Shown in pieces: positions 11,746 through 45,488 of a stretch of DNA of 58,805 nucleotides (its first letter is position 1; the number at the start of each line of letters is the position of its first letter). The stretch covers positions 1-58,805 of the forward strand of contig JBAXUY010000006.1 in the NCBI GenBank assembly GCA_037129475.1, in the 5' to 3' direction. The notes under the pieces were generated by a model, which saw only the letters and a list, made by a program, of their open reading frames with translations, searched no databases and was not told where the DNA came from. Source of the stretch: Planctomycetia bacterium (lineage in GTDB: Bacteria; Planctomycetota; Planctomycetia; Pirellulales; UBA1268). The translations under genes were made by a program, and so were the position numbers.

Positions 11746-11826
11746 GTAGGTGCAGACTGCCAGTCTGCACACGGCGGCGCGCGGTGGAGCCTGGCCGAAT
11801 TCTGCGGAGTACCACTCTACGGCTAA
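11746..11826. repeat. Third A/B REP pair, between convergent gcvP and rhamnosidase genes
   Basis: GTAG-GTGCAGACTG-C-CAGTCTGCAC at 11746-11770; degenerate B copy at 11802-11826 whose TTAG contains the rhamnosidase stop. Confidence 0.65.
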
Positions 11827-17105: not shown

Positions 17106-17142
17106 GCGTTCGATCGTCCGCTCGGCCGCAGCGCACTGCCAG

Positions 17143-17158
17143 TCAACAGAATTGCCGA
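17143..17158. promoter_or_regulatory. Degenerate TCGGCA-N4-TGCCGA site upstream of the rhamnosidase
   Basis: TCAACA-GAAT-TGCCGA, 38 nt upstream of ATG 17105. Confidence 0.5.
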
Positions 17159-17431
17159 CGCGCGGGCGGTCCTTCAGGATCGGTCCACCGCGAGTGTGCC
17201 GACCGCGCAGACCACGCGGGCCCGTCGAGGCCAGGCTGGAAGAGAAAGGTCAACAAGGAATATCCTCTTTTTTGCTGATAACCGCGTAACCTTCCCGATG
17301 CAATAAAAGAGATCCGATGGAACTGCCGGATTGACGTCGGCGCGACTGTCTTCTCGCGGAACTCGGGGCTTCACGTGCGGATGTGTGCCGTGCAACAGAG
17401 CGAGCGATAAACTGGGCCACTCGGTAGCCAC

Positions 17432-20400
17432 ATGCACTCGGCACGAATCATGTCCCTGATCCTTGCATTGCTGTTGCATGGCGTCGCACTGTTGATGCCA
17501 GGCGTCGCTGCGGCCGCTGGCCCGGACTTCGCTCGGGACGTGCGGTCAATCCTTTCGAATCGGTGCTTCAAGTGCCACGGCCCCGACGAGGGGAACCGCG
17601 AGGCCGGGCTGCGGCTTGACCATCGTGACGTTGCGATCGGCGAGCTCGACAGCGGCCGCCGCGCGATTGTTCCGGGGCATCCTGGCGACAGTGAATTGGT
17701 GGCCCGGATCGTGAGCGACGACCCCGATCTGGTGATGCCACCGCCGCACACGAAGTCCACACTGACGCCGGACGAGAAGCGGATTCTGACCGAGTGGATC
17801 GCCGTCGGTGCGCCCTATGCCCCACATTGGGCATTCGTGACACCGGAGCAGCCTGCGGTTCCGGAACTCGCGTCCGCGCCAGCAGGCTGGCACAGAAACC
17901 CGATCGACGCTTTCGTGCTTCAACGGCTCCAGGACGAGGCGATTGCCCCGAGCCCGGAGGCAGACAAGGCGACGCTGTGCCGCCGCGTGTATCTCGACCT
18001 GGTCGGCCTTTCGCCGTCGCCAGCCGAATTGGATGCGTTCCTCGCGGATCCGGCGCCGGACGCCTATGAGCGGCTGGTCGACAGGTTGCTGGCGAGCCCG
18101 CGCTACGGCGAGCGCTGGGCGCGTCGGTGGCTCGACCTCGCCCGCTACGCCGATACCAATGGCTACGAAAAGGACCGCGATCGCTCGATCTGGCCGTACC
18201 GCGACTGGGTGATTCGCGCCCTGAACGACGACATGCCGTTTGACGAGTTCACGATCAAGCAGCTCGCCGGCGATCTGCTGCCTGACCCCACGGCGAACGA
18301 CATCATCGCTACGGGCTTCCACCGCAACACGATGATCAACGAGGAAGGGGGCATCGATCCGCTCGAGTTTCGCTACCTCGCCATCGTGGATCGCGTGAAT
18401 ACGACCGGCGCCGCGTGGCTGGGCCTCACGTTCGCCTGCGCCCAGTGCCACACGCACAAGTTCGATCCCATCACCCACACCGACTATTTCGGTGTCTTCG
18501 CGATGCTCAACAACGCCGACGAGCCGGAGTGGCTGATCCCGGGGCCGGACTTGGACCAACGACGGGCTTCGCTCGCCCGCCAGCTCGACGAGGCCTGGAA
18601 GACAATTCCTGACAAGTGGCCGGCGAAGGCCGTGGCGGCTCCGGAGCAGGTGGCAGGATCCGGCGAGCCGGGCATGGCGATCGACGTCGAGCCGACGGCA
18701 GCGGAGCAGCTCGCACGGCGGTTCGAGGAGTGGCAGCGCGAAGAGGCCGCGCGGGCGGTCGCCTGGGGCGTCTTGCGACCTGCTGCCATGCAGGCGAATG
18801 TGCCGCGTCTCACAAGTCGCGATGACGGGACGATCGTTGCCAGCGGCGACTTCACGAAGAGCGACACGTACGAGATCGAGCTGCCTCCGTCGCCGAAGCC
18901 GGTGCGTGCGATCCGGCTCGAGGTGCTTCCCGACGAAAGCCTTCCGAATCACGGCCCCGGGGTCACTTGGTATGAGGGGCTGCCAGGATCGTTCTTCCTG
19001 TCGGAGTTCAAGGTGGCCGTCGGCGGGCGCGGCCGGCAGGTTGCCTCGGCAACCCACTCGTTCGCGTGGGAAAAAGACACGGCCGCAGCCGCCATCGACG
19101 GCGAGATGTCGACCGGTTGGAGCACGCACTCGGAGCAGGGCCAGCCACACGCCGCCGTGTTCGTGCTGGCAGAGCCAGTGATGCCGGGCGAGCCGATTAC
19201 GGTTTCACTTTTGTTCGAGCGACATTTTTCCGCGGCGCTCGGCTGCTTTCGACTGTCGGTCACCGACGAAGAGTCGGCCGAGTCACGGGGCCTGACCGCC
19301 GCCGAAGAACGGATCATGCTCAAGGACGTATCGGAACGGACTCTCGAAGAGAGGCAGGCCGTCTTCCGTCGGTTCCTGGCGCGGGCACCGGAACTGGCGG
19401 AGCCCATGAAGTCGATTCGGTGGCTCGAAGGATCGATGCGCAGCGGCACCCGTTCGCTCGTCCTCAAGGAGCGACCGGCAGACAATCCCCGCAAGACTTT
19501 TCGCCACCATCGCGGCGAATACACGCAGCCGAAAGAGGAGGTGCAACCCGCCACGCCGTCGTTCCTGCCTCCCTTGCCTCCGGGTGTGCCACCCACACGG
19601 CTCGGCCTCGCGAAGTGGCTCGTCGCGCCGGACAACCCGCTCACCGCCCGCGTCGCCGTCAACCGACACTGGCAGGCGTTCTTTGGCCGCGGGTTCGTTC
19701 CATCGCTCGAGGATCTGGGCCATCAAAGCGAAACCCCAAGCCATCAGGATCTGCTCGACTGGCTAGCGACGACGTATTCCCGGGATCTCGCCTGGTCCAC
19801 CAAGAAACTCCATCGCCTCATCGTGGCCAGCGCGACCTACCGGCAGGTGTCGGCTGTGACGCCTGCCCTCGCCGAGCGCGATCCCAAGAACGTGCTCCTG
19901 GCCCGGGGCCCGCGGATCCGGTTGGAGGCCGAGGTGATCCGGGACTCCCTCCTGAAGGCGGCCGGCCTCCTGTCGGAAAAGATGTACGGCCCCGGCGTTC
20001 GCCCGCCGCAGCCGGCGGGTGTTACGGAAGTGGCCTACGGCGAGCCCAAGTGGGTGCCGAGCGGCGGGGAAGACCGGTATCGCCGCAGCATCTACACGTT
20101 CCAGAAACGCACGGCTCCGTTCGCGATGACGACCACGTTTGACGGCCCGACGGGCGAGGCATGCGTGCCGCGTCGCGACGTCTCGAACTCCGCGCTCCAG
20201 TCGCTCACCCTTCTCAACGATCCGATGTTCGTCGAGGCGGCGCAATCGCTGGGCCGTGTCGTCGCAGTGGCCGGTTCCGACGACGACACTCGGCTTCGGG
20301 ACCTCGCGAGGCGAGTCCTCTCCCGCGAATTCGACGACGCGGAAACGTCGTTCATGAGGGCCTTTCTCGACACGCAGCGGCAGCGGGTGGCGGCCGGTGA

Positions 20401-20515
20401 ACTCGACGCCAAACGGCTCGCCGGAACCGATGGCCCTGACGCCCAGGAACGGGCGGTGTGGATGCTGACGGGCCGCATCGTCATGAATCTCGATGAGACG
20501 GTCGTGAAAAAATAG
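17432..20515 (+). CDS. PSD1 and planctomycete cytochrome c domain protein (PSCyt1/DUF1549/DUF1553)
   Basis: Signal peptide; CFKCH and CAQCHTHKFDPI heme motifs; NPIDAFV, YGERWARRWLDLARYADT, NPLTARVAVNRHWQ. Confidence 0.93.
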   Translation: MHSARIMSLILALLLHGVALLMPGVAAAAGPDFARDVRSILSNRCFKCHGPDEGNREAGLRLDHRDVAIGELDSGRRAIVPGHPGDSELVARIVSDDPDLVMPPPHTKSTLTPDEKRILTEWIAVGAPYAPHWAFVTPEQPAVPELASAPAGWHRNPIDAFVLQRLQDEAIAPSPEADKATLCRRVYLDLVGLSPSPAELDAFLADPAPDAYERLVDRLLASPRYGERWARRWLDLARYADTNGYEKDRDRSIWPYRDWVIRALNDDMPFDEFTIKQLAGDLLPDPTANDIIATGFHRNTMINEEGGIDPLEFRYLAIVDRVNTTGAAWLGLTFACAQCHTHKFDPITHTDYFGVFAMLNNADEPEWLIPGPDLDQRRASLARQLDEAWKTIPDKWPAKAVAAPEQVAGSGEPGMAIDVEPTAAEQLARRFEEWQREEAARAVAWGVLRPAAMQANVPRLTSRDDGTIVASGDFTKSDTYEIELPPSPKPVRAIRLEVLPDESLPNHGPGVTWYEGLPGSFFLSEFKVAVGGRGRQVASATHSFAWEKDTAAAAIDGEMSTGWSTHSEQGQPHAAVFVLAEPVMPGEPITVSLLFERHFSAALGCFRLSVTDEESAESRGLTAAEERIMLKDVSERTLEERQAVFRRFLARAPELAEPMKSIRWLEGSMRSGTRSLVLKERPADNPRKTFRHHRGEYTQPKEEVQPATPSFLPPLPPGVPPTRLGLAKWLVAPDNPLTARVAVNRHWQAFFGRGFVPSLEDLGHQSETPSHQDLLDWLATTYSRDLAWSTKKLHRLIVASATYRQVSAVTPALAERDPKNVLLARGPRIRLEAEVIRDSLLKAAGLLSEKMYGPGVRPPQPAGVTEVAYGEPKWVPSGGEDRYRRSIYTFQKRTAPFAMTTTFDGPTGEACVPRRDVSNSALQSLTLLNDPMFVEAAQSLGRVVAVAGSDDDTRLRDLARRVLSREFDDAETSFMRAFLDTQRQRVAAGELDAKRLAGTDGPDAQERAVWMLTGRIVMNLDETVVKK

Positions 20516-20547
20516 GGCGAGCATCCATTCCGGATCGGAGCGAAACG

Positions 20548-21981
20548 ATGACCAGTCTCGACATCACCCGCCGTCATTTCTTCAATGATTGCGGCATCGG
20601 GGTCGGCAAACTCGCGCTGGCCGGCCTGCTCGCTGAGGCCTTGCCCGCTCGGCCGGCAGCCGGCGGATCGTCGGCGTCTCTCTCGCCGCTGGCGGCTCGG
20701 GCCGGACATTTTCCCGGCCGTGCGCAGGCGGTGATCCAGCTCTTCATGGCCGGGGCCCCGAGCCAGCTCGACATGTTCGACTACAAGCCGAAACTTGCGG
20801 CGATCGAGGGCAAGCCGATTCCCCCGGAGGTGATCGGCGGCCAGCGGTACGCGTTCATCCGGCCCGACGCGGCGGTGCTCGGGCCGCAGTTTCGGTTCGG
20901 CCGGCACGGGCAGTGCGGTGCCGACATCTCGGAGGCCCTGCCCCATCTGGCCCGCGTAGTCGACGAGATCGCGATCGTGCGCAGTTGCCGCACAGACCAG
21001 TTCAATCATGCGCCGGCCCAGATTTTCATGAACTGCGGCTTCGCGCAGCCGGGGCGGCCGAGCATGGGTTCGTGGGTGACGTATGGCCTTGGCAGCGAAA
21101 GCGACGACCTGCCAGCCTTCATCGTGATGAGCACCGGGGGCGGGGTGAGCGGCGGCAGCGCCAACTGGTCAAGCGGCTTTCTCCCGAGCGTCTACAGCGG
21201 TACACGGTTTCGCAAGGCGGGCTCTCCGATCCTGAACGTCGAGATGCCCGACGGGGCGGATCGGCGCCTGGAATTCGACACGCTCCGGGCGATCACCGCG
21301 CTCAACCGCCAGCGGCTTGCGATCGACGGCGACCCGGAGATCGCCACGCGGATCGCCAGCTACGAGATGGCCCATCGGCTCCAGACGTCGGCCCCGAACC
21401 TCATGAATCTTGCCGATGAGTCGGCCGAAACGCTCGCGCTCTATGGCTGCAAGCCCGAGGAGGCAAGTTTCGCACGCGCCTGCCTGATCGCCCGGCGGCT
21501 CGTCGAGCGGGGTGTGCGGTTCATCACGATCTACCACGAGGGCTGGGATGGCCACTCGGACGTGGCCGGCAACGTCCGCGGCAACTGCGGCGCCACCGAT
21601 CGGGGCAGCGCCGCCCTAATCCTCGATCTCAAGCGGCGCGGGCTGCTCGACAGCACGCTCGTGGTCTGGGGTGGTGAATTCGGCCGCACGCCGATGGTAG
21701 AGGCCAGCGCCGTGCTCAAGCGGTCGAAGGGCCGCGATCATCACCCCAACGCGTTCACGATGTGGCTTGCCGGCGGCGGCATCAAGGGAGGCATCAGCTA
21801 CGGCGAGACCGATGAGTTGGGCTTCCACGTGGCCCGCGACGAGGTGCACGTGCACGACCTCCAAGCCACGATCATGCACTGTCTCGGCCTCGATCACGAG
21901 CGGCTGACGTATCGCTACCAGGGGCGCGACTTCCGGCTCACCGACGTCCACGGGCATGTCGTCAGCCGTCTCCTGGCGTAA
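20548..21981 (+). CDS. DUF1501 domain protein (Tat-exported, sulfatase-like fold)
   Basis: TRRHFF Tat motif; LFMAGAPSQLDMFDYKP, GRPSMGSWVTYGLG, WGGEFGRTP, GRDHHP. Confidence 0.92.
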   Translation: MTSLDITRRHFFNDCGIGVGKLALAGLLAEALPARPAAGGSSASLSPLAARAGHFPGRAQAVIQLFMAGAPSQLDMFDYKPKLAAIEGKPIPPEVIGGQRYAFIRPDAAVLGPQFRFGRHGQCGADISEALPHLARVVDEIAIVRSCRTDQFNHAPAQIFMNCGFAQPGRPSMGSWVTYGLGSESDDLPAFIVMSTGGGVSGGSANWSSGFLPSVYSGTRFRKAGSPILNVEMPDGADRRLEFDTLRAITALNRQRLAIDGDPEIATRIASYEMAHRLQTSAPNLMNLADESAETLALYGCKPEEASFARACLIARRLVERGVRFITIYHEGWDGHSDVAGNVRGNCGATDRGSAALILDLKRRGLLDSTLVVWGGEFGRTPMVEASAVLKRSKGRDHHPNAFTMWLAGGGIKGGISYGETDELGFHVARDEVHVHDLQATIMHCLGLDHERLTYRYQGRDFRLTDVHGHVVSRLLA

Positions 21982-22021
21982 GGCTCAAGACAAACTGAGG
22001 ACACGTGGAGATGGTCTTGCC

Positions 22022-22687
22022 ATGCGGATGTCGATGCCTTGGATTTTCATGATTGTTGCCATCGCATCAGGATCGGCTGCCGAGGCCGCCGATTCGGTCG
22101 ATCTTCTCTCGAACGGCCTCCAAGGCTGGGTCGTCGAGGGAACAAGAGATTTTGACAACCGGGGGGATCGTGTGCCGGTGTGGACGTTCGCCGAGGGAGT
22201 TGTGCGATCGAGCGGCCATGGCTTCGGATTCCTGCGGAATAAAAGACAGGTTTCCGATTTTCGTCTCGAGCTGGAATATCGGTTCGCCAAAAACGGCAAC
22301 AGCGGCGTTGGCATTCGCACCTGCCCGTATGTCGACACCGTGGACTCGAGGCCCAGTCAGGCGGGCTATGAGGTGCAGCTGCTTTCGGATTCTGGACAAC
22401 GCCCCAGCCTGACCTCGGGCGGTTCGCTCTATGCCCACGCCATCCCGTCCCAAAACACGTCGCGTGCGATCGGCGAATGGAACTCGCTTGCCGTCGAGTG
22501 TCGTGGGCCCCGCATTCGGGTCATCCACAACGGAGTGGACGTGGTCGATTTCGACCAATCGACGCAGCCGACTGCTGAGCAAAAGCCTCTGCGGGGCAGC
22601 GTGTGTCTGCAGAACCACGGCAGCGCGGTGGAGTTTCGCTGCATTCTGCTGACCGATCTGTCGCCTGACGACGTCCTGCGGGACTGA
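22022..22687 (+). CDS. DUF1080 / 3-keto-disaccharide hydrolase family protein
   Basis: Signal peptide; DFRLELEY..GNSGVGIR, GYEVQL, GEWN, LQNHG.VEFR motifs; start uncertain (22022-22034). Confidence 0.85.
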   Translation: MRMSMPWIFMIVAIASGSAAEAADSVDLLSNGLQGWVVEGTRDFDNRGDRVPVWTFAEGVVRSSGHGFGFLRNKRQVSDFRLELEYRFAKNGNSGVGIRTCPYVDTVDSRPSQAGYEVQLLSDSGQRPSLTSGGSLYAHAIPSQNTSRAIGEWNSLAVECRGPRIRVIHNGVDVVDFDQSTQPTAEQKPLRGSVCLQNHGSAVEFRCILLTDLSPDDVLRD

Positions 22688-22739
22688 TTCTGGGGCCCCT
22701 CGTGTGGGAGGTGCGAGGGGCTCGGCCGTGACGATGCCT

Positions 22740-22867
22740 GTCGGCAATTCTGCCGACGGCGGTCGGCGAGGCCCCGAAATAGCCTGGAATCCAGGGCAAC
22801 AAATTTTCCCCGCTTGCTTGCGTCAGCAGATTTGCCGATTTCGCTCGGCGGAACGGTGACCTACTTT
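22740..22867 (+). promoter_or_regulatory. Activator-dependent promoter of the PEP-CTERM/DUF1559 operon with two TCGGCA-N4-TGCCGA palindromes
   Basis: Perfect site at 22741-22756; one-mismatch site at 22823-22838 abutting TTTCGC(-35)-17 nt-TACTTT(-10). Confidence 0.6.
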
Positions 22868-22919
22868 TCAAGCGATGGGGGATACCCACAGAGCCCAGCA
22901 TGTGGTTGGAGAAACGTGG

Positions 22920-25900
22920 ATGAGACGCTCACTCCTGCAATCTGCAACGGTGTTCGTGCGGCGTGCCGTGATCGGCATCGCGTGTGGCTTCGTATGCATG
23001 GCAGTCACCCACGCGCAGTCGATCACGTGGAGTGGCAGCACGAGCCCGCTGTGGAATGTGACAGGCAACTGGTTCGGGGGCGTTCAGCCCGGGGCGTCGA
23101 ACATCATCGTCTTCGGCACCGCCAGCACGGTCAATCTCTCAGGCACGCTCGGGGCGAATTTCTCCGTCGCCGGGCTCACTGTCGGCAGCACGCCGGGCAA
23201 CGTCTCGATCAGCGGTAACACGCTGACGCTCGGTACCAACGGCATCGATATGTCGAGCGCAGCAAATTCGACCAACAGTCTCACGATTGGCTCAACGCTG
23301 AACTTCAACGCAACGTCGAATGTCAACGTGGCATCTGGGCGCTCGCTGACCTGGAATGCCTCGGGTGCAAACTTCAATTCCGGCACCGTCACGTTCTCTG
23401 GCGCTGGGACGGTAGCGGCGAACATCGCAACGAATATCGCAAACACCTCGGGCTCCAATGCGACCGTCGTGCTTCAAAGCGGTACGTTTTCGATCGGGAA
23501 CGGCCCGAATCTCATGATCGGGAATGCAAGTAATACGCTTGGCTCGTTTATCAATAATGGTGGCACAATCACGCACCAATTCGGGGCATTTCAGATTGGT
23601 TTTTCCGGTTCGGGCGCTTTCTTACAGACGGCCGGATTGACGCAGGTCTCTGTCTTGCGGTTCAAGACGGGCGATCTCCGCATCTCAGGTGGCACTTTTT
23701 CAGCGAACACCTTCGATGAGATGGCGAATAGCGCGAGCAATGTTGCGTCCATCACGCTTACTGGCGGCACAACGACGCTCCCCGCCTTTCCGACGACCCG
23801 CGGCACAGGCGCCACGGCCACTGTCACGTTTGATGGCGGCGTGCTGCGGCCGAGGGCCACGAGTTCCGCCTATCTGCAAGGACTGACCAACGCCTACCTC
23901 ACCAACAACGGTGCGTTCCTCGACACCAACGGCAACGACATCACGATCGCCCAGGTCCTGCAGGACGGCACTGCCGCAGGGACGGCTGGTCGGCTCACTA
24001 AATCCGGCGCTGGAACTTTGACGTTGACCGGATCGAACTCGTACAGCGGTGGCACCGTGATCAACGCCGGAGCGATTCAGGTCAAAGGCGAATCGCTTCC
24101 GAACGCCGGCCTCGGCACCGGCGCGCTCAACATCGCGAACGATGCGGCCGGACTGATTGTCTGGTGGAACACGGCCAACAGCACCGGAACGATTGCGAAC
24201 AATGTCACGATCAACAGCAGCGTGAGTCCCACTGCGACCAAGGAGGCCATCTTCCTCGACGGCGGGAACGGCGGAAACCTCCTGCTTTCGGGTTCGGTGA
24301 CGCTGTCAAACGCTGCGAGTTCACTCGGTTCGTATCAAAGTCAAATGATCACGATCACCGGAAAGGTGACGGGGACAGGCGGCCTCAACAAGGGCATGGG
24401 AGCGGCGAACAACACGGGGAGCCTCGTGCTGTCCAACACGGCAAATGACTATTCCGGCAACACCACAGTCGTTTCGGGTGTTCTCCGACTCGGTGCGTCG
24501 AACGCGGTGCCGTTTGGGGCTGGCAAGGGCAACCTCGTCCTCAACGGAGGTGCGAACAGTTTCCAAGCAGGAACGTTCGATCTAAATGGTTTTAATCAAA
24601 CGGTCAATGGACTGAGCGGAACTGCGAACACAAATCTTGGCCGGGTGGTGAACAATGCGTCGGGCACGAGCACGCTCACCATCGGAGCCAACAACACGAC
24701 GAGCAGTTTTGCCGGCCAGTTGGCCGACGGCGGCGTCGGCAAGGTGCTCGCGCTCAGCAAAACCGGCAGCGGCACCCTCACGATTTCAGGTAGCAACACC
24801 TACACGGGCACGACGACGCTCTCGGGCGGTGCTCTTTCCTTGGGCGGATCGTCGGCACTCGCCGGCGGTGGAAGCATCACATTCAACGGCGGAACGCTTC
24901 AACTGACTGCCAGTAATGTGCTCGACTATTCGGTAAGGATCGTTGGCAGCGGAAGCGCGATTTCGCTCGACACGAATTCGCAGAATGTCACGCTCGCGAG
25001 TGCGCTGGCAAGTTCCAATGTCGGGGGGCTCTCGGTTCTTGGGAGCGGGACGGTCACGCTGCAAGGCGCCAATGCGTATGGCGGCGCGACGGCGCTCCAA
25101 AATGGCGTCATGATGCTCGACTCGGGAAACGACAGGCTGCCGACTGCCACCACCCTGACGCTGGGCGCTGCGGGATCATCGGCGAAGCTCGTTCTCGGAG
25201 CATTGGGAGTCGCCCGAAACCAGACGCTTGCCGGCTTGCTTGCGACCGGCAGTGGAGGAAGCGTCGTGGGCCATGCAGCGGCGAATTCCACGCTTACGTT
25301 GAACATTGCCGCATCCAATACGTTTGCGGGCCAACTCGGGGGCGGCAGTACGAACGAAAATAATCTTGCCCTGGTCAAGTCTGGAGCGGGAACGCTCAAC
25401 CTCACGGGAACGAATTCCTTCAGCGGTGGAACGACCGTTAACGCGGGTATGCTCGGACTGTCGAATCTCGCCGTGACGAACATCGGGCTCGGCGGCGGGA
25501 ACCTGAACATCGCAACTGACGGCGCTGGCCTAAGGGTGTGGTATTCGGCGGTCGGTAGCGGGACAATCGCGAACAACATCACGCTCAATAGCTCGGTCAG
25601 CACCGACCCCGCCAAGGAGGCGATCTTTGTCGATGGTGGCGGTGCCAACAGCCTCACGCTTTCCGGAACGGTGACGCTTTCGAATGCCGCCAGTTCGATC
25701 GGTTCGTACTGGACAAACTCCGTGGCGATCACAGGCAAAGTTACCGGAGTAGGCGGTCTCTCGAAGGGCATGGGAGCAGCAAACAACACGGGCATGCTCA
25801 CGCTTTCAAACGCCGGAAATGATTATTCTGGAAATACGGCTGTCGTGTCTGGAACGCTTCGGCTCGGGGTGACGAACGCGGTGCCGTTCGGCACCGGCAA

Positions 25901-27623
25901 GGGGAACCTCGTATTGAACGGCGGCACCGCGAGTTTTCGGGCAGGATCGTTCGATCTAAACGGCTTCGATCAGACGATCAATGGCTTGAGCGGAACCTCG
26001 AACACGTTTCTGGGCCAGGTGGTCAATAACGCCACCGGCACAAGCACTCTCACAGCGGGTGCCAACGACACGACGAGCAGCTTTGCAGGCCAGCTGTCCG
26101 ACGGCGGCGTCGGCAGAGTGCTTGCGGTCACAAAAACCGGCGCGGGCACACTCACGCTTTCTGGAAGCAGCAACTTCACCGGTGCCACGACGATCGCGGG
26201 CGGTGTTCTTTCCGTCGCCTCGGGCGGCATGCTCGCGGGATCGACGGGAGCAATCGTGATCAATGGCGGAGAGTTGAAGTACAACTCTTCATCCACACTC
26301 TCGCGGTCGATCACGTTCACGGCCGGCACGATCTCCGGCACCGGCTCGATCGGTACGGCGGTGACGGTCAACACCGGTGACGTTCTTTCCCCAGGCAACT
26401 CCCCTGGCGTGCAGAACTACACGAACGGCCTCACGTTCGGCTCCGGCGGCCAATACATCTGGGAGATCAACAACTGGGCCGGCTCCCCAGGTACGGGATA
26501 CGACCAACTCGCCGTGGCGGGAAGCGCGCTCAATATCACGGCCACGAGCGGCAGCACGTTCACTGTCGCTGTGACCGGGCTTACGGCGGGCAACGCATCA
26601 GGTGCCGTGCCCGGCTTCTCCGCGACGTCGGGCACCGGCACGTCTTTCACGATCGCCACGTCGTCGGCCGGGATCACCGGCTTTGACAAGACGAAGTTCG
26701 CCGTCGATACGAGCGGCTTCACGAACAATAACGCGCTCCCCGCCAGCGCTGGCTTCTGGGTGTCGCAGTCGGGCAGCAACATGCTTCTGAATTACGCGCC
26801 GTCGGCGACGCGTTCGCTCTCCGCCGCCACAAGCGCTGCCCAGATCATCGTGGGCGGCACGGCCACGATCTCGGCCAGTGTGATCAATGCCGGTGTTCCG
26901 GCGAGCAATCCTGATGCGCTGAGCTATACGGGGCTTTCCGTCGGCAACGGCGTGACGCTTGGATCGACGAGTGGCGCTGGCGTCACGGCGGGCGGGACGA
27001 GCACGACCTCCGGGGCGTTCAGCACCGTCACGGCCGGCACGTACACGTTTACGCCGAGCGTGGCCACGGCGACCAACACCAACATCGGCACCAATGCCCT
27101 CGTCGGCTCCACCGGCGCGGCCACCGTGACCGTGCTCGACCACGCCACGTCGAGCCTCTCGGGGACCGGCGCTGTCCTGAGCGCGGTGCTGAATCTTGGC
27201 ACCTGGGACTACGGCGTCGGGGCGTGGACGGTCGGCACGAACACCGGCACATTCTCGGTCTTCAACCTCGCAAGCCTCGCGGGGGCGTCGCTCACGGCCG
27301 ACCTGTCGCTGAACGGCTACACCGCGAATGGCGGCGGCTTCTCCACGAATCTGAATGCCTACTCCGACATCCTCGGTGGACAGTCGTCGCCCTTCACGAT
27401 CACCGTCGATCCCTCATCGTTCCTGACGTCGGGCACGCAGTCGAAGACGTTCACCCTCACGATGGCGGATAAGACGGGGCTCTCGGGTGGCGCGGCCACC
27501 AACACGCTCACGGTGACGGCGAATGTCGTCGTGGTGCCGGAGCCGAGTGCCGCGATGCTCGCCGGGCTTGCGGTCTTTACGGCCTGCTGGGTCGCGTGGA
27601 GACGGCGATGCCCTGACGCCTGA
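22920..27623 (+). CDS. Autotransporter-associated beta-strand repeat protein with PEP-CTERM sorting signal
   Basis: Many LTKSGAGTLTLTGSNSYSGGT repeats; LSPGNSPG; C-terminus VPEPSAAMLAGLAVFTACWVAWRRR; signal peptide; no autotransporter barrel seen. Confidence 0.9.
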   Translation: MRRSLLQSATVFVRRAVIGIACGFVCMAVTHAQSITWSGSTSPLWNVTGNWFGGVQPGASNIIVFGTASTVNLSGTLGANFSVAGLTVGSTPGNVSISGNTLTLGTNGIDMSSAANSTNSLTIGSTLNFNATSNVNVASGRSLTWNASGANFNSGTVTFSGAGTVAANIATNIANTSGSNATVVLQSGTFSIGNGPNLMIGNASNTLGSFINNGGTITHQFGAFQIGFSGSGAFLQTAGLTQVSVLRFKTGDLRISGGTFSANTFDEMANSASNVASITLTGGTTTLPAFPTTRGTGATATVTFDGGVLRPRATSSAYLQGLTNAYLTNNGAFLDTNGNDITIAQVLQDGTAAGTAGRLTKSGAGTLTLTGSNSYSGGTVINAGAIQVKGESLPNAGLGTGALNIANDAAGLIVWWNTANSTGTIANNVTINSSVSPTATKEAIFLDGGNGGNLLLSGSVTLSNAASSLGSYQSQMITITGKVTGTGGLNKGMGAANNTGSLVLSNTANDYSGNTTVVSGVLRLGASNAVPFGAGKGNLVLNGGANSFQAGTFDLNGFNQTVNGLSGTANTNLGRVVNNASGTSTLTIGANNTTSSFAGQLADGGVGKVLALSKTGSGTLTISGSNTYTGTTTLSGGALSLGGSSALAGGGSITFNGGTLQLTASNVLDYSVRIVGSGSAISLDTNSQNVTLASALASSNVGGLSVLGSGTVTLQGANAYGGATALQNGVMMLDSGNDRLPTATTLTLGAAGSSAKLVLGALGVARNQTLAGLLATGSGGSVVGHAAANSTLTLNIAASNTFAGQLGGGSTNENNLALVKSGAGTLNLTGTNSFSGGTTVNAGMLGLSNLAVTNIGLGGGNLNIATDGAGLRVWYSAVGSGTIANNITLNSSVSTDPAKEAIFVDGGGANSLTLSGTVTLSNAASSIGSYWTNSVAITGKVTGVGGLSKGMGAANNTGMLTLSNAGNDYSGNTAVVSGTLRLGVTNAVPFGTGKGNLVLNGGTASFRAGSFDLNGFDQTINGLSGTSNTFLGQVVNNATGTSTLTAGANDTTSSFAGQLSDGGVGRVLAVTKTGAGTLTLSGSSNFTGATTIAGGVLSVASGGMLAGSTGAIVINGGELKYNSSSTLSRSITFTAGTISGTGSIGTAVTVNTGDVLSPGNSPGVQNYTNGLTFGSGGQYIWEINNWAGSPGTGYDQLAVAGSALNITATSGSTFTVAVTGLTAGNASGAVPGFSATSGTGTSFTIATSSAGITGFDKTKFAVDTSGFTNNNALPASAGFWVSQSGSNMLLNYAPSATRSLSAATSAAQIIVGGTATISASVINAGVPASNPDALSYTGLSVGNGVTLGSTSGAGVTAGGTSTTSGAFSTVTAGTYTFTPSVATATNTNIGTNALVGSTGAATVTVLDHATSSLSGTGAVLSAVLNLGTWDYGVGAWTVGTNTGTFSVFNLASLAGASLTADLSLNGYTANGGGFSTNLNAYSDILGGQSSPFTITVDPSSFLTSGTQSKTFTLTMADKTGLSGGAATNTLTVTANVVVVPEPSAAMLAGLAVFTACWVAWRRRCPDA

Positions 27624-27709
27624 CCAGCCGCGCCGGAGTTCTCGGCGTAGGATTGGGCTGGGCTGGCGATGATGCGGGGGATTCGAGCCCCGCTCTCAAG
27701 GAGGCAGCG

Positions 27710-28696
27710 GTGCAGACATCTCTGGTTTTGCTGTGGCGTCGACGGGCCGCGTTTACGTTGATCGAACTGCTCGTGGTGATCGCGATCATCGGGCTGCTCG
27801 TTGCGCTCTTGATTCCGGCGGTGCAGGCTGCGCGGGAGGCGGCCAGACGCAATGCGTGCACGAACAACCTGAAGCAGTGGGGACTCGCCATGCACGAGCA
27901 CCACGACGCCTTCCGGGCCCTGCCGTACGGCACGAACCGGGTGTATCCGCTCGGCAAGGAATCCGAGACCGCAGGGTGGACGCAGCGGCGCACGTTCGTC
28001 GTGTCGCTCTGGCCGTTCCTCGAACAGACAGGCCTCGCGAATGCCTACGATCCGACGCGAGGCTTCTACGACACGCGGTCCAATGCATCGGGCCGCTCGA
28101 ATCTGCAGCTCGTTGCGACTCCAATCGCTTCCTACTACTGTCCGAGTGATCGGCCCGGCGCGATGTGGAAAGGTGATGGATTTGTCCGGTGTCGCCTGAA
28201 CTACGTTTCAAACTGGGGGCCACAATATATCTTTAATTCCACGCCAAGCGTCATCCGCACGGCTCCGTTTGGCTTGTTGTCGGTCGGATCCGGCGGCTTC
28301 GCGACGTGTGTGCCATACCGCACGAAGTTCGGCGAGATCACCGACGGGCTCTCCAAGACGTTGATGCTGTCAGAAATGCGCACTCCGATACAAGACACAA
28401 CGACCGACTCAAGGGCGGATGGCATGAGCGACGGAGGCTGCTCATGGTTCATGACCGGGAACACGCCTAATTCCGGGATCGACAACACCCCCGGGTGCGA
28501 CCAGTCGCTCGATCAGGCCACGATGCCCTGTGTGACCACGGCCCATTCATGGCTGACAGCGCGCAGCAGACACGCCGATGGAGTGAATGCCGTGTTTTGC
28601 GACGGCGCCGTGGCATTCGTGAAGGATTCGGTCACGTTGGTGACCTGGCGATCGCTGAGCACCATGAATACCGCAGACACGATCAATGCCTACTGA
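27710..28696 (+). CDS. DUF1559 family prepilin-type N-terminal cleavage/methylation protein with H-X9-DG motif
   Basis: [40 protein letters not shown]; YCPSD; ITDGLSKT; RSRHADGVNAVFCDG; AGGAGG before GTG 27710. Confidence 0.92.
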   Translation: MQTSLVLLWRRRAAFTLIELLVVIAIIGLLVALLIPAVQAAREAARRNACTNNLKQWGLAMHEHHDAFRALPYGTNRVYPLGKESETAGWTQRRTFVVSLWPFLEQTGLANAYDPTRGFYDTRSNASGRSNLQLVATPIASYYCPSDRPGAMWKGDGFVRCRLNYVSNWGPQYIFNSTPSVIRTAPFGLLSVGSGGFATCVPYRTKFGEITDGLSKTLMLSEMRTPIQDTTTDSRADGMSDGGCSWFMTGNTPNSGIDNTPGCDQSLDQATMPCVTTAHSWLTARSRHADGVNAVFCDGAVAFVKDSVTLVTWRSLSTMNTADTINAY

Positions 28697-28708
28697 ATTG
28701 TTGCCCCG

Positions 28709-29137
28709 ATGAAAAAGTGTGTCGAAAAATCATCATGGACTCGGCTGTGGCCGGCAGTCGTGTTAGCCGCAATGTGCGGATGCGGTCGGCCGCCGACGAC
28801 GGTTGGCGGTGTGATCACGTGCAACGGCAGCCCGCTCGCGAATGCAGCCGTACAGTTCATTCCGGCCGATGGAGATGGCCAGGTTAGCCACGCATTCACC
28901 GATGCGGAAGGACGCTACGTTGCCAAGGTGTCGCCCACCCGTTTGATCGTGACGGTCAACGCACCAGTCCCCGCCGGCAGGCGAAAGGCCTATGACATGC
29001 CCGACAGTCCGATGGTGGATGTGATGGTCGAGTCGCTCCCGGAACACTTCAGTGATCGAGACCGTTCCGAGCTCGTCGTGTCGGCGGTCGAAGGGCGGCA
29101 CACGCTGGCGGATTTTGCGCTCGAGCGGAAGCCGTAG
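28709..29137 (+). CDS. Lipoprotein with carboxypeptidase-regulatory-like (transthyretin-like) domain, DUF1559 partner
   Basis: Lipobox-like LAAMCGC; VGGVITCNGSPLANAAVQF.P, TDAEGRY, LPEHFS..S.L. Confidence 0.75.
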   Translation: MKKCVEKSSWTRLWPAVVLAAMCGCGRPPTTVGGVITCNGSPLANAAVQFIPADGDGQVSHAFTDAEGRYVAKVSPTRLIVTVNAPVPAGRRKAYDMPDSPMVDVMVESLPEHFSDRDRSELVVSAVEGRHTLADFALERKP

Positions 29138-29153
29138 CGCGTGCTTCTGTCAG

Positions 29154-29879
29154 TCATGCATCCGAACGCGGGCCGTAGATCTTTGCCACGGCCTGGGCCC
29201 GGGACCGGACGTGGAGCTTTTGGTAGATCCGCTCGATGTGCGTGTGCACCGTCGAGTAGCTCACCTTGAAGTGGGAAGCGATCTCCTTGTACAGGTAGCC
29301 TCGGGCGAGGAGGTCGAGCACGTCCCGCTCGCGCGGCGAGAGAGCCGCCTCAATCAGCTCCCGCTGCGGGTTGGCTTCACGGACGGCTGGTTTGGCCGGC
29401 TGTGTTGTAGGTTCTGCGAAGGCCTGAACGAGCTTTCTCGCGATATTGCTCGTGAGCGGGGCGCCTCCGCCGATCACGTCGCGAACAGCCGATAGCAACT
29501 GTGCGGCGCGAATCGGCTTGAGCAGGTAACCCTTGGCCCCGGCTGCCAGCGACTGATAGAGCACATCTGTGTTGTCATACACCGTGAGCATCACCACTTG
29601 CACGTCCGGCAGCAGGCCTACCAACTCGCGCACACACTGCACACCGTCCATCTTCGGCAGGTTGACGTCCATGATCACCACGTTGGGCCGCCGCTCGGCC
29701 ATCTCGCGCAGGGCCTCCTCGGCGGAACCAAACGTGCCGACGCACTCGATCTCCGGGTCGCCCTGAAGAAAGCCGGCCAAGGCCTGGCGGGTGGCCTTGT
29801 CGTCTTCCACGATGGCGACGCGGATGAGATCGCTGGTGCTCGTCCGTGTGGTGCGCACGATCGGGGTGGTCTTGGTCAT
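29154..29879 (-). CDS. NarL/FixJ family response regulator (REC + LuxR HTH)
   Basis: VAIVEDD, MDVNLPKMDG, GAKGYLLK; LSPRERDVL..LARGYLYKEIA...TVHTHIERIYQKLHV. Confidence 0.95.
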   Translation of the reverse strand: MTKTTPIVRTTRTSTSDLIRVAIVEDDKATRQALAGFLQGDPEIECVGTFGSAEEALREMAERRPNVVIMDVNLPKMDGVQCVRELVGLLPDVQVVMLTVYDNTDVLYQSLAAGAKGYLLKPIRAAQLLSAVRDVIGGGAPLTSNIARKLVQAFAEPTTQPAKPAVREANPQRELIEAALSPRERDVLDLLARGYLYKEIASHFKVSYSTVHTHIERIYQKLHVRSRAQAVAKIYGPRSDA

Positions 29880-29903
29880 GGGGATGAACTCTCGTCGGGC
29901 TTT

Positions 29904-31619
29904 TCAGGACGTTGAAACCGGAACCGATAGCTGGATGGATGTGCCCTTGCCAGGCTGGCTCTCGCAGGAATACGTACCGCCCACCTGCTGCATGCGGCGT
30001 TGCATGTTGGCGAGTCCTTTGCCACTGGAGGAGCCGCGGGCGGCCTCGGCCGGCATGCCGTCGCCGTCGTCCTCGACGAGAATCCGCAGCCGGTTGTCGA
30101 CCACGGCGAGCCGCAGCGTGATCGTGGTGGCGCGGGCATGTTTGACGGCGTTGTGGAGCGCCTCTTTGGCGGCGAGGAACAGGTTGTGGCGAACGTTGGA
30201 AGGTAGCGGGACGTCGGGCAGCCGGGGCGGAAGGTCGATTCGGCAGCACCCACCGCTGGAGGCCACGAAGTCCTGAGCATATTTGCAGAGATAGGCTGAA
30301 AACGGCTCGAGGGCGTCGTTGTGGGGGCTGATCGCCCAGACGATCTCGTTGAGATGCTTCGCCAGCCCCATGGCGTTGTCGAAGATCTGGTCGAGAAACC
30401 GGCGGCTCTCGTCGGGCGTGATCGCTGGGCTGCGGACGAGGTCGCTGAGCATGCCGATGCGGGTGAGGTTTGCCCCGAGGTCGTCGTGAAGGTCCTGGGC
30501 GATCCGCATCCTATCGGCGGCGAGCATCCGCTGCTGCTCGGCCGCGGCGAGCTGCCGCTGCATGCGCTGGCGGGCGACCTGCCGGATCCCGAGGGCGACG
30601 AGCCCGGTGCCGCCAGCCGCCGAGGCGGCCCAAAACCAGGGCCGCGCCCAGACGGGCGGAGGCACCTCGATGACGGCTGTGTATTCGGGGCTCTGGGGGA
30701 CGCCGAGGGCCGAACACTCGCTTATCCGGAAGCGATATTCGCCGGGTGGCAGATCGTCGTAGGTCACGGAATACGCATCGCCAACGCCCACCGCATAGAG
30801 TTCGCTCCATTCGACGAGCAAGTCGTCGCCCGGCGTGACTGCCGGCGAGATCGTCGACGTGGTGATCCACCCGCCAAGGCCTCGGGGGTCGTCGTCGATG
30901 AGCGCGAGCGCGTGCCGCACCGGCGGCCCAGGAAGGCGAACCACCCGTCCGACACCGGGCCGCGTGCCGTCTCGCGCCCAGCCTTCTGGGACGCCGAACG
31001 GGTCGTCGAGATCTTCGCCGTCTTCAAAATCGCTCTGGAAGATCTGTCGGTCGGGAACGCCTTGCTTTCCGACGACGGAGATTCGAATCGACTCGAACAC
31101 GCGCACGCCCGTCGTCTGCTCCGGCCCGGCCGAGATCAGCCAGAGCATCAGCTTCGCGGCCCGTGGCGGCACCGAGATCCGCTTGCTGTGTTTCTGGAAG
31201 GGAGACGTCTCGATCTGCCCGGTCCAGCCCTGTGAGCGGCCTTTGACAAGGCTTTCGTCGCCATCGACGGGCTGGTTGTTCGCATCTATGAAGCGGACCT
31301 GGAATCGCATCAGGCCGTGGTCGGGATCGCGCCAGTTGTCATCGCGGCCGTCGAGCCGATACCGGAGCTGCACCGGCACTCTGTCAAGCCGCACTGGGTC
31401 ACCGAAGGTCATCTTCAGCCGCGAAGGTCGGTCGGGCAGCAGGTAGATGTCTTCAGTGCCACGTCTGCCGGAAGGGGCAATGACGCGGTCGTCAGCGATC
31501 AGGCGGTCGAGGGTCACCGGTGCGACTGCCGAGTCGCTCGCAACGGTCGGACGAAGCGAGCAAGCGGCTGAACAAAGCGTTCCCGCCAGCCCCGCAGCGA
31601 CGACCGTGTACAGCCTCAT
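29904..31619 (-). CDS. Sensor histidine kinase (HisKA_3 + HATPase) with extracytoplasmic Y_Y_Y domain containing a CBM-like insertion
   Basis: RIAQDLHDDLG, EALHNAVKHA, DDGDG, GKGLANM; LRYRLDG...W and YDDLPPGEYRFRI; TM segment after PPVWARPWF. Confidence 0.9.
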   Translation of the reverse strand: MRLYTVVAAGLAGTLCSAACSLRPTVASDSAVAPVTLDRLIADDRVIAPSGRRGTEDIYLLPDRPSRLKMTFGDPVRLDRVPVQLRYRLDGRDDNWRDPDHGLMRFQVRFIDANNQPVDGDESLVKGRSQGWTGQIETSPFQKHSKRISVPPRAAKLMLWLISAGPEQTTGVRVFESIRISVVGKQGVPDRQIFQSDFEDGEDLDDPFGVPEGWARDGTRPGVGRVVRLPGPPVRHALALIDDDPRGLGGWITTSTISPAVTPGDDLLVEWSELYAVGVGDAYSVTYDDLPPGEYRFRISECSALGVPQSPEYTAVIEVPPPVWARPWFWAASAAGGTGLVALGIRQVARQRMQRQLAAAEQQRMLAADRMRIAQDLHDDLGANLTRIGMLSDLVRSPAITPDESRRFLDQIFDNAMGLAKHLNEIVWAISPHNDALEPFSAYLCKYAQDFVASSGGCCRIDLPPRLPDVPLPSNVRHNLFLAAKEALHNAVKHARATTITLRLAVVDNRLRILVEDDGDGMPAEAARGSSSGKGLANMQRRMQQVGGTYSCESQPGKGTSIQLSVPVSTS

Positions 31620-31669
31620 GACACCCTGGATCGTACCAAACGACCGGGTGCCGGACCGAGCGCCACGCC

Positions 31670-31685
31670 TCGGCAGTTTTGCCGA
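31670..31685. promoter_or_regulatory. Perfect TCGGCA-N4-TGCCGA palindrome upstream of the kinase/regulator operon (candidate autoregulatory site)
   Basis: TCGGCA-GTTT-TGCCGA; -10-like TACGAT on minus at 31630-31635. Confidence 0.6.
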
Positions 31686-31694
31686 CAGGCTGCT

Positions 31695-32249
31695 TCAGCC
31701 AAGCGAACGGCGGAGCCAGAGGCCGGCGGCGACGAACGCGATGCCGCTGGAGAGCAGGTTGATCCCAATGAGCACCCCGAGATAAACGCCCGCCTGTGTG
31801 GCCGGGCTCGTGAGCAGGATGCCCCCGAGGAGCGCCGTCACGATTCCGTCGAAGAGGATCCAGCCCCAGGGGAATCCCGGCGGCGCCGAGAAGGCGGCGG
31901 TGAGCTTCGCGGCCGCCTGGAAGAGAATCACGAGACCCAGGAATGTGACGAGGGCGTGGATGCCCTCGACGGGGATGGCGAGCATGGCCGTGCCGGCCAC
32001 GATCGAGAGCACGCCGCAGAGGAGCGTGAGCCAGAAGCCGCGCCAGGTCCACGTGGCGGCCGTCATGCCGAGCTGCGATACCCCGGCGGCGATGAGCGTG
32101 CCGGCGCAGACGTAGTCGATCACGGTCGATGCCGCCCACGGCGCAGCGAGCGCGAGGAGGCCAAGGATGGAAAGCACCGCTCCGAGCCCGAGCGTCCAGG
32201 TTGGGAGCGATGCGACAGCGTCGGCAGGAAGATTGGAGCGTGTCGTCAT
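31695..32249 (-). CDS. HdeD/DUF308 family membrane protein
   Basis: About six hydrophobic helices with the two-repeat pattern G.LSI..G..L..P. Confidence 0.8.
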   Translation of the reverse strand: MTTRSNLPADAVASLPTWTLGLGAVLSILGLLALAAPWAASTVIDYVCAGTLIAAGVSQLGMTAATWTWRGFWLTLLCGVLSIVAGTAMLAIPVEGIHALVTFLGLVILFQAAAKLTAAFSAPPGFPWGWILFDGIVTALLGGILLTSPATQAGVYLGVLIGINLLSSGIAFVAAGLWLRRSLG

Positions 32250-32274
32250 GGTCGTATTGTATCTCGTTCAGGCG

Positions 32275-32796
32275 TCAGGCGGCGCCGAGGCCTTCCATGC
32301 GGCGCCACGCGCTCGCCTGGCCGAGGTGCATCATCATGTGGCCGCCGCAGTAGAAGGCCTGCACCGAGCCGATCGTGGGGAAGAGTTCCTTCATCCGCCC
32401 CTCGGCGGGATTGGGCCGCTGGAAGACGTCGTCAGGCGTGCTGCGGAGAGCTCCCGTCACCATCCGGTGTCCTTCGTGGAAAAACGTGACGATCTCGTCC
32501 ATCGACGGATAGAGGTCGAGGTCGGGATCGTCGACACACTTCGCGTCCTTCGAAAACCGGATCTCGAAGTGCTCGGGCACCGGGGGGGCCGGGGAACCGA
32601 TTTGGTGCAGAATTTTCGGCGCGTAGAGGCTCAGGTGGCCGTAGACGAAGGCCGGGTGGTTCGACTCCACGGTCTGGCCGCCCACGACCGCGAACCGTGC
32701 GAACCGCTCGGCCGGCACGCCCTTCAGGAGCCGGTCGGCGTAGCCGAGCGAGAGCTGGAGTGAATCCGCGATCACGTTGCCGAGCGAGCGGGCCAT
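32275..32796 (-). CDS. DinB family protein
   Basis: Start ATG 32796 (GAGG RBS); NHPAFVYGHL and HMMMHLGQ metal-binding His pattern. Confidence 0.8.
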   Translation of the reverse strand: MARSLGNVIADSLQLSLGYADRLLKGVPAERFARFAVVGGQTVESNHPAFVYGHLSLYAPKILHQIGSPAPPVPEHFEIRFSKDAKCVDDPDLDLYPSMDEIVTFFHEGHRMVTGALRSTPDDVFQRPNPAEGRMKELFPTIGSVQAFYCGGHMMMHLGQASAWRRMEGLGAA

Positions 32797-37013: not shown

Positions 37014-37214
37014 TCATGGCGCAGTATGCGTTGGAGCGACCGGCGTATCGCGGGCCGCCCCGTCACCCTGCGCCCACGCCTTTTGAAACGCATCGATGGT
37101 GGCTTTTTCCTCCTCCGGGCTCAAGGGTTTTGCCAATTGCAACGTGGGTGTCGAGAAGCCGCAGCCAGAAGCTGCCAGAAGCAGCCAGACGCTCAAAAGC
37201 CAGACGTGGTTCAT
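37014..37214 (-). CDS. Small putative lipoprotein downstream of DUF1559
   Basis: [18 protein letters not shown] lipobox-like signal; start overlaps the DUF1559 stop; 66 aa. Confidence 0.6.
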
Positions 37215-38143: not shown

Positions 38144-38165
38144 GGTACGTACTTCCGCGGAAGCC

Positions 38166-45323: not shown

Positions 45324-45379
45324 GGATCCCCGTCCCCCGAAGAGCGCTACCTGCCGAGCACCTTGAACTTCTTCTTCGA

Positions 45380-45488
45380 AGCGTAGCTCTCATCTCCGCG
45401 GAGCGGAATGAGTTTTTGGGAACCTCAGCGTGAAAATTCATCGGCTTGTGTTTGTGGGAACTCTCCTCGTCTTGAGTTTTTGGGAAGT
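45380..45488 (-). promoter_or_regulatory. Putative activator-dependent promoter of the giant PEP-CTERM operon with three TTCCC-N5-C(T/A)CA sites
   Basis: Minus strand TTCCCAAAAACTCA-TTCCGC-17 nt-TACGCT; extra copies at about 45446-45462 and 45472-45488. Confidence 0.6.

Follow-up and report, generated by a model that had tools for sequence, protein, structure and literature searches.

Is the inverted repeat TCGGCA-N4-TGCCGA, which recurs between the genes of a single planctomycete locus, a regulatory site, and if so, which protein reads it? The repeat occurs in a 58,805-nt stretch of DNA from a Planctomycetia bacterium (GenBank assembly GCA_037129475.1, contig JBAXUY010000006.1, positions 1 to 58,805 of the forward strand), hereafter the window, which corresponds to contig C260 of an assembly (G000) of 3.67 Mb in 303 contigs, with 68% G+C. 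It stands before a gene for an alpha-L-rhamnosidase fusion protein, before an operon headed by the gene for a giant PATR-repeat surface protein, and before the genes for a sensor histidine kinase and a NarL/FixJ-type response regulator. An earlier inspection of the bare sequence (the original prediction) had proposed that this two-component system co-activates all three transcription units through the repeat. That interpretation is supported as far as computation goes: the repeat is likely to be the operator of the regulator encoded at 29154-29879, and the best reading of the locus is that of a small, local and self-regulated regulon that probably responds to a glycan.

The original prediction had listed two perfect copies of the repeat, one copy with one mismatch and one with two, and all four are present. 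The perfect copies, neither of which has an assigned strand, lie at 22741-22756 (TCGGCAATTCTGCCGA; matrix score 25.3), distal to the PATR gene and 82 bp upstream of a second, proximal copy, and at 31670-31685 (TCGGCAGTTTTGCCGA; matrix score 25.3), 51 bp 5' of the kinase ATG. The promoter-proximal copy with one mismatch, at 22823-22838 on the plus strand (TCAGCAGATTTGCCGA; matrix score 23.5), abuts the putative -35 element of the PATR promoter. The copy with two mismatches, at 17143-17158 and again without an assigned strand (TCAACAGAATTGCCGA; matrix score 20.7, rank 4 in the genome), falls in the divergent region between the rhamnosidase ATG at 17105 on the minus strand and the ATG of a PSCyt gene at 17432, and is 38 bp from the former. 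The consensus TCGGCA-N4-TGCCGA can be extended to tGTCGGCA-N4-TGCCGACa. According to a map of open reading frames (ORFs) and Pfam domains all four copies are intergenic, as had been claimed, and their spacers are indeed A/T-rich, with three of four bases being A or T in each copy in a genome of 68% G+C. Two perfect matches in the window compare with an expectation of 0.02, and 16 matches with up to two mismatches compare with an expectation of 6.5; none of 100 shuffled sequences reached either number.

Across the whole genome the half-site pattern by itself is no rarity within coding DNA, and the four sites are set apart by their A/T-rich spacer together with their intergenic position. The genome holds six perfect copies, 105 copies with at most one mismatch (94 of them within ORFs called by a crude gene picker based on G+C at third codon positions, GC3) and 1107 with at most two. 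Just 25 of the 1107 combine an intergenic position with an A/T-rich spacer, and the only ones among these 25 with no mismatch or a single mismatch are three of the sites in the window. A symmetric weight matrix was trained on seven sites from G002, a genome of the same genus, and from metagenome contig L060, that is on other assemblies only, to avoid circularity. When 3,661,458 positions of the window's genome were scanned with this foreign-trained matrix, the four window sites, which span 14.5 kb, took ranks 1 to 4 and were the only positions to score 20 or more; rank 5, with a score of 19.1, lies in a coding region. The original prediction would have been contradicted by a motif as frequent in coding DNA or at unrelated promoters; this was not the case for the full sites, which lead the genome-wide ranking, although the bare pattern is frequent within ORFs. 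As a separate observation, the form with a 3-nt spacer, TCGGCA-N3-TGCCGA, has 29 copies in the genome, compared with 0-8 for each other spacer length from 0 to 12, an excess that is probably a coding or codon effect.

The distribution of the repeat in related assemblies follows that of the two-component system. Orthologues of the kinase are found in G002 (76% identity), in the metagenome contigs L060 (73%) and L061 (72%), and in L068 (81%). The operator lies upstream of the kinase gene in four of the five orthologous loci (window, L068, G002 and L060), always 50-55 bp before the ATG. It occupies the proximal PATR position in 4 of 4 loci and the distal position in three of these, and it precedes the rhamnosidase gene in all three loci compared (window; G002, L059 1302; L068 19501). 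In G002 the PATR gene is preceded by two perfect copies (L058 11915 and 11989), the first of which is the identical 16-mer of the distal site in the window, and L060 has a copy with one mismatch at the distal position (13210). The corresponding stretch of L068, at about 17790-18000, gives a translation that by eye resembles an insertion sequence (IS) or transposase. Further G002 sites lie before the kinase gene (L021 15079) and before a 3-keto-disaccharide hydrolase gene. The G002 genes are dispersed over two contigs, at distances of up to 45 kb, with the kinase and regulator on C21, the rhamnosidase at about 29 kb of C55 and the PATR gene at about 82 kb of C55, and the sites stay with their genes.

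Alignments of four genomes present the sites as islands of invariant columns within diverged DNA. The proximal PATR site falls within the invariant block GTC.GCA..TTTGCCGATTT, and at the kinase site the block GTCGGCA.AACTG..GA is invariant among the window, L068, G002 and L060. BLAST searches with the intergenic segments 22688-22960 and 17080-17460 against 16 genus genomes returned essentially short noise matches and were uninformative because intergenic DNA is too diverged; the exception was an exact match of 21 nt at G002:C55:81913, through which the PATR promoter of G002 was located.

Among the 16 genus genomes, an orthologous regulator is encoded by only two, G000 (100% identity) and G002 (81%), the next best match having 58% identity. 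The same two genomes have the raised counts of the pattern with an A/T-rich spacer, 7 in G000 and 12 in G002, compared with a mean of 2.9 in the other 14 and with 0-4 for reversed-pattern controls. Seven of eight matches checked in genomes without the regulator (G008, G003, G010 and G004) were inside ORFs, and none was near homologues of the genes of this locus. Conservation of the operator together with the regulator, as the original prediction required, is thus borne out by the kinase, proximal PATR and rhamnosidase positions and by counts that follow the presence of the regulator.

Several additional features of G002 touch on the extent of its regulon. A perfect site, TCGGCAGAAATGCCGA, at L064 5231-5246 (G002:C55:57230) lies after the gene for a PA14/PKD protein and about 150 bp before a second PSCyt-DUF1501 gene pair, and G002 may have a larger regulon than the genome of the window. 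A site with one mismatch at L059 10185-10200 (G002:C55:38184) lies after the 3-keto-disaccharide hydrolase gene and before a DUF4159-MoxR-DUF58 operon; a rearrangement could have left it there as a remnant of the PATR promoter, or it could be a genuine additional target. The sequence TCGGCGGCCGGGGAA, absent from the window, is common to the PATR leaders of G002 (L058, about 12030-12060) and L060 (about 13080-13110).

The position of the repeat relative to the promoter is equally regular. In six of six PATR promoters (those of the window, L068, G002:C55 and L060 and those of the paralogous loci G000:C282 and G002:C77), exactly 23 nt separate the proximal palindrome from a downstream TAnnnT hexamer, represented by TACTTT, TATCTT, TAATCT, TATTTT, TAATTT and TACTCT. 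In the window the putative core promoter occupies 22839-22867 on the plus strand and consists of TTTCGC (22839-22844), a 17-nt spacer and TACTTT (22862-22867), the very elements that had been proposed next to position 22838; a ..CCTA..TTC block of this promoter is conserved in the four-genome alignment. If the hexamer is the -10 element, the 23-nt gap places the palindrome centre near -43.5, beside a poor -35, and the predicted transcription start would fall near 22874, where the original prediction had expected it. A class II activator binds at a site centred near -41.5 that abuts or overlaps a weak -35 element, and a centre at about -43.5 would fit that position, in keeping with the proposed location near -42. 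The distal and proximal sites are separated by 73-82 bp across loci.

The kinase gene is preceded by a -10-like hexamer, TACGAT (31630-31635, minus strand), 10 nt before the ATG and 34 nt after the operator, within the conserved columns T.TG.TA...T. Four orthologous kinase genes have a TAnnnT hexamer 9-10 nt ahead of their ATG, and three paralogous ones have it 6-7 nt ahead, a proximity that suggests leaderless or near-leaderless mRNAs. The sequences TACGAT, TAGGAT, TAGTCT, TACGCT and TACAGT account for these hexamers in the window (31620-31635), L021 (15134-15149), L060, L068, L052, L053 and L054. The arrangement suggests a more distal activator position at the kinase promoters.

Two other features of these promoter regions were noted. 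Between the distal and proximal PATR sites, at 22776-22800, the window contains GAAATAGCCTGGAATCCAGGGCA, whose other strand approximates the right half of the operator of the paralogous locus described below together with its ATTTCG flank; this could be what remains of a divergently arranged promoter, or a site of cross-talk. A sigma-54 reading of the repeat was rejected by eye, since GGCA-N4-TGC falls 3 nt short of the spacing in the -24/-12 consensus.

Which protein binds the repeat is best approached through the regulator and its paralogue. The regulator has a receiver domain (PF00072, E = 2.3e-26, residues 21-133) and a GerE/LuxR-type tetrahelical helix-turn-helix domain (PF00196, E = 1.6e-16, residues 179-232). 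Its VVIMDVNLP segment aligns with VAVLDVRLP of DevR, and the Asp of this segment is presumably the phospho-acceptor. The HisKA_3 kinase gene is located 24 nt upstream on the same strand. The nearest relatives with solved structures are DevR (E = 9e-30), VraR, DesR and NarL. All NCBIfam equivalog scores, the best being those for MctR (120.2 bits against 300), MadR (117 against 300) and NarL (111.6 against 250), are far below their cut-offs, so the protein cannot be classed as an orthologue of one of the named regulators.

A paralogous locus, G000:C282, and its orthologue G002:C77 encode a small protein, a DUF1559 protein and a PATR protein and, divergently, a kinase, a regulator, a sulfatase-GxGYxYP protein, a PSCyt protein and a DUF1501 protein. 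These loci carry a variant operator, TCGCCA-N4-TGGC(G/T)A, at the same promoter position (TCGCCAGTTCTGGCTA), and a second copy of the variant before the sulfatase-GxGYxYP gene (TCGCCACAATTGGCGA in G000 and TAGCCACTTTTGGCGA in G002). The copies at the PATR promoter and the enzyme gene are at L024 9729-9744 and 12274-12289 in G000:C282, and at L025 11751-11766 and 9236-9251 in G002:C77; two matches per 20-kb locus compare with 0.14-0.17 expected. Relative to the operator of the window, the variant is a symmetric exchange of G and C at positions 4 and 13. The recognition helix differs in parallel, being invariant as VSYSTVHTHIERIY in the four window-type regulators and as VSYHTIHAHVRHIY in both C282-type regulators, with the former reading ...STVHTHIERIY where the latter read ...HTIHAHVRHIY. 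A symmetric change of the operator that is paired with a change of the helix is as predicted for a dimeric binder encoded next door, and this paralogy is the strongest indirect argument that the regulator is the binder.

Two other candidate elements were set aside. The sequence TCAGCAGGTTTGCCGG before the paralogous kinase gene (L024 9761) is not conserved in the G002 orthologue, has a matrix score of only 11.5 and was left unassigned, and GAAATAGCC, considered as a shared element, has 20 copies in the genome, two of them at these loci and most others in ORFs; it corresponds to the flank of the paralogue operator on the opposite strand. More distant paralogues have other recognition helices and other upstream repeats. 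The upstream regions of the distant PATR genes (L052, L053 and L054 from G004, G015 and G012, and L023 and L026 from G000:C212 and G004) were inspected, and the repeats conserved in these distant modules include TGTGGATAAATGTGGA(T/C)A, a direct repeat located 33 nt ahead of TAnTTT, and TGTCCGCAAGTTTT(C/G)GACA.

Taken together, these observations suggest the following mechanism. The kinase would sense a glycan through an extracytoplasmic sensor of the Y_Y_Y type with a lectin-like insertion and would phosphorylate the regulator, a dimer of which would then bind the palindromes. At the operon for the PATR, DUF1559 and small proteins, class II activation is most likely, with the proximal site at about -43.5 and the second site about 7-8 helical turns upstream. 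The kinase-regulator operon would be autoregulated from a site centred at roughly -55 to -60, and the divergent region between the rhamnosidase gene and the PSCyt and DUF1501 genes would also be a target.

Several points weigh against this interpretation. The seven training sites were found with the half-site pattern of the original prediction, so that the matrix ranks are independent evidence for the spacer and the tolerated substitutions only, and the assignments to coding or intergenic DNA come from a crude gene picker by which some genes were visibly missed. The L061 kinase gene is without an operator and begins about 40 bp downstream of a different gene. Orthologues of the system are known from only four related assemblies, and as these are kin, the conservation does not amount to four independent events. 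The gap between operator and hexamer at the kinase promoters varies (34, 34, 39 and 40 nt), no consistent -10 element is found at the rhamnosidase promoters compared, and a consensus promoter scan called none of the promoters discussed here. The -10 and -35 assignments assume promoters of the sigma-70 type, which are poorly characterised in Planctomycetota. Finally, a site that overlaps a -35 element could equally serve for repression.

This last point is the basis for the view that the same regulator represses, or acts both ways, covering the PATR -35 until a signal removes it. The 73-82 bp between the two PATR sites would also permit looping. The -35 hexamers, however, are poor (TTTCGC, TTTCCG), and the consensus scan that found no promoter here is in line with this; both features are typical of activator-dependent promoters. 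The fixed 23-nt gap in all six PATR promoters, moreover, would place the site at the classical class II position. Repression is accordingly regarded as unlikely, and activation by the regulator is the preferred reading. The repeat might also be the operator of another factor encoded elsewhere, for example a sugar-responsive repressor, with the two-component system being merely one of its targets, as could be imagined from G002, where most target genes are not adjacent to the two-component system. Such a factor seems improbable: in four assemblies the only regulator genes linked to sites are those of this kinase and regulator, the paralogous system pairs a symmetric operator variant of its own with a different recognition helix, the raised counts track the regulator orthologue within the genus, and the 6-N4-6 layout suits this family of DNA-binding domains. 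Binding by the adjacent regulator is what we infer from these comparisons.

The remaining explanations dispense with a DNA-binding protein altogether. The perfect copies fold as 6-bp stems of about -8 kcal/mol, and they lie 54 nt (22741) and 10 nt (31670) past stop codons, so that RNA hairpins that terminate or stabilise the transcripts of the 3-keto-disaccharide hydrolase and DUF308 genes could be envisaged. No run of T follows the sites, however, and the 16 terminator-like calls made in 17000-32400 include none of the four. Across 14 sites, none of 11 half-site deviations is compensated, and several stems drop to -0.5 to -3.7 kcal/mol. The L060 kinase site lies between divergently oriented genes, neither of which ends upstream of it, and the 17143 site is likewise between divergent genes; a role as RNA hairpins is very improbable. 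Chance matches promoted by the G+C-rich composition would account for the abundance of the bare pattern in ORFs (94 of the 105 copies with at most one mismatch) and for the 0-6 matches that each of the genus genomes without the regulator still holds. They do not account for two perfect copies where 0.02 are expected, for the first four matrix ranks or for positions conserved across assemblies, and the chance explanation, to which we would assign almost no weight, is refuted as far as computation allows.

The genes served by the presumed operator of the regulator had been correctly labelled in the original prediction, to judge from Pfam and NCBIfam, with the PEP-CTERM label resting on inspection by eye. 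The rhamnosidase gene (11823-17105, minus strand) encodes a GxGYxYP and alpha-L-rhamnosidase fusion of 1760 aa (PF17389, E = 1.2e-93; PF08531, PF05592 and PF14323; NF041573). It is followed on the plus strand by genes identified with Pfam for a PSCyt/DUF1549/DUF1553 protein (17432-20515), a DUF1501 protein (20548-21981) and a 3-keto-disaccharide hydrolase (21956-22687). These three genes (17432-22687) probably belong to the unit too, and PSCyt and DUF1501 recur in the paralogous locus. The giant PATR-repeat surface protein with a PEP-CTERM-like tail is encoded at 22875-27623 on the plus strand (PF12951, seven stretches, E = 3.9e-35; TIGR02601). Its true start is probably the ATG at 22920, which has GGAGAA just before it and a signal-peptide-like sequence after it. 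PEP-CTERM signals consist of a C-terminal PEP motif, a transmembrane helix and a basic cluster. The C-terminus of this protein, ...VVVPEPSAAMLAGLAVFTACWVAWRRRCPDA, displays by eye VVVPEPS, a hydrophobic stretch and RRR, and no NCBIfam PEP-CTERM model matched the protein at E <= 0.01.

The cassette continues on the plus strand with a gene for a DUF1559 protein that has a prepilin-type N-terminus and an HX9DG C-terminus (27653-28696; PF07596, E = 1.1e-43; PF07963; TIGR04294) and with a third gene for a small protein of 142 aa (28709-29137), whose CarboxypepD_reg-like match (PF13620, E = 6.8e-6) is weak and does not reach the curated cut-off. The paralogous and orthologous cassettes, compared for position and size, have a similarly sized ORF in place of the small-protein gene. 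On the minus strand lie the genes for the NarL/FixJ-type response regulator (241 aa, 29154-29879), for the sensor histidine kinase (571 aa, 29904-31619; HisKA_3, PF07730, and HATPase_c, PF02518) and, from the gene map, for a DUF308 protein (31695-32249). The original prediction had treated the region as one functional unit, and the paralogous locus and its G002 orthologue, which repeat the same gene set, agree with this.

The window contains a second PATR/DUF1559 cassette (37211-47450), in which the matrix scan found no TCGGCA palindrome site. It has another upstream element in three copies, TTCCCAAAAACTCA(AGACG), TTCCCAAAAACTCATTCCGCTC and TTCCCAATTTCTCATTCCGCTG, which are found at 45401-45486 and 47476-47497 on the minus strand and precede a gene for a PATR protein of 2385 aa and a DUF1559 gene (46188-47450). 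This element may mark another regulon or the promoter of an alternative sigma factor.

What the two-component system might sense can be considered from its kinase. The sensor region of about 320 aa is extracytoplasmic and all-beta in a structure model (pLDDT 88.1, pTM 0.79, from a 12-sequence alignment). Foldseek found no match to this model in the PDB at E <= 0.001. The best matches by VIA-align were the membrane-proximal Y_Y_Y domains of Bacteroides thetaiotaomicron sensors, namely those of BT3049 (3v9f, Z 11.2), the heparin sensor BT4663 (4a2l, Z 10.7) and BT4673 (3ott, Z 9.9), with a root-mean-square deviation of 3.5-4.5 over 109-117 residues and 20-22% identity; the Pfam Y_Y_Y match in the kinase is weak (4.3e-5) and below the cut-off. 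The Y_Y_Y domain is split by an insertion (approximately residues 106-258) that resembles a glucanase or lectin jelly roll, with a Z of about 7 that is within the noise band of the tool. A Y_Y_Y sensor with rhamnosidase and sulfatase partners makes a glycan signal a reasonable inference and no more. Under the proposed mechanism the signal is probably a rhamnose-containing, possibly sulfated, glycan or its breakdown product.

Knowledge of promoters and operators in Planctomycetota is very thin, and the source organism is uncultured. Against this background the locus provides a candidate operator that is defined to the base, has a fixed promoter geometry and undergoes a natural specificity switch between two paralogous systems. 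No earlier description of the motif was found in the titles and abstract openings of the literature on DUF1559 or on DUF1501/DUF1553. The locus also links DUF1559, PSCyt/DUF1549/DUF1553, DUF1501 and giant PATR/PEP-CTERM proteins, all of them families without a known function that have greatly expanded in Planctomycetota, with a rhamnosidase or sulfatase and with a sensor akin to those of glycan-sensing systems, which points to polysaccharide capture. Few such families have expanded more in the phylum than DUF1559, PSCyt and DUF1501.

A broader view, possible though decidedly tentative, is that such loci are the planctomycete counterpart of polysaccharide utilisation loci, organised as paralogous, insulated modules. 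Each module would have its own glycan-sensing two-component system, with a sensor like that of the hybrid two-component systems (HTCS) in its Y_Y_Y domain and with a lectin-like insertion, and an operator variant of its own that fits the recognition helix of its regulator. Under the same tentative view, the enzyme would be specific to the module, a rhamnosidase in one and a sulfatase in the other, and would be combined with a common set for capture and uptake made up of the PEP-CTERM PATR giant, the DUF1559 pseudopilin, the small lipoprotein-like protein and the PSCyt and DUF1501 proteins. If this were true, DUF1559, PSCyt and DUF1501 would for the first time be tied to a mode of regulation and to a function, that of glycan acquisition.

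The proposed mechanism, in which a two-component system controls its own genes through a palindromic operator, is a textbook one; what is new is the sequence, the organism and the target genes. Autoregulation and palindromic operators are usual in the NarL-type family. The present system resembles NarL, DevR (DosR), VraR and DesR in the combination of a receiver with a GerE domain and in the adjacent HisKA_3 kinase, and differs from this family in a sensor domain that is unlike those of NarX, DevS and VraS. A close parallel in operator layout is provided by ComA of Bacillus subtilis, which is described as binding the 6-N4-6 inverted repeat TTGCGG-N4-CCGCAA upstream of the RNA polymerase site (PMC4797271). 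From that account, the two systems have in common two inverted hexamers, a 4-nt spacer, a small direct regulon and a tetrahelical helix-turn-helix of the LuxR/GerE type (PMC4797271). They differ in the half-site, which is TCGGCA here, in the signal, which is presumably not a quorum peptide here, and in the organism, an uncultured planctomycete.

In gene content, the nearest likeness is to the polysaccharide utilisation loci of Bacteroides that are governed by an HTCS such as BT4663. The kinase and regulator are separate proteins here, unlike the hybrid system, and the output domain is GerE rather than AraC. No beta-propellers were found with Pfam, and the Y_Y_Y domain carries a jelly-roll insertion instead. 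In place of a SusC/SusD pair, which was not seen here, there are PATR/PEP-CTERM, DUF1559 pseudopilin-like and PSCyt/DUF1501 proteins. Nevertheless, both kinds of locus place a Y_Y_Y membrane sensor beside glycan-degrading enzymes and surface proteins, and the planctomycete loci, like those of Bacteroides, are duplicated as paralogous modules.

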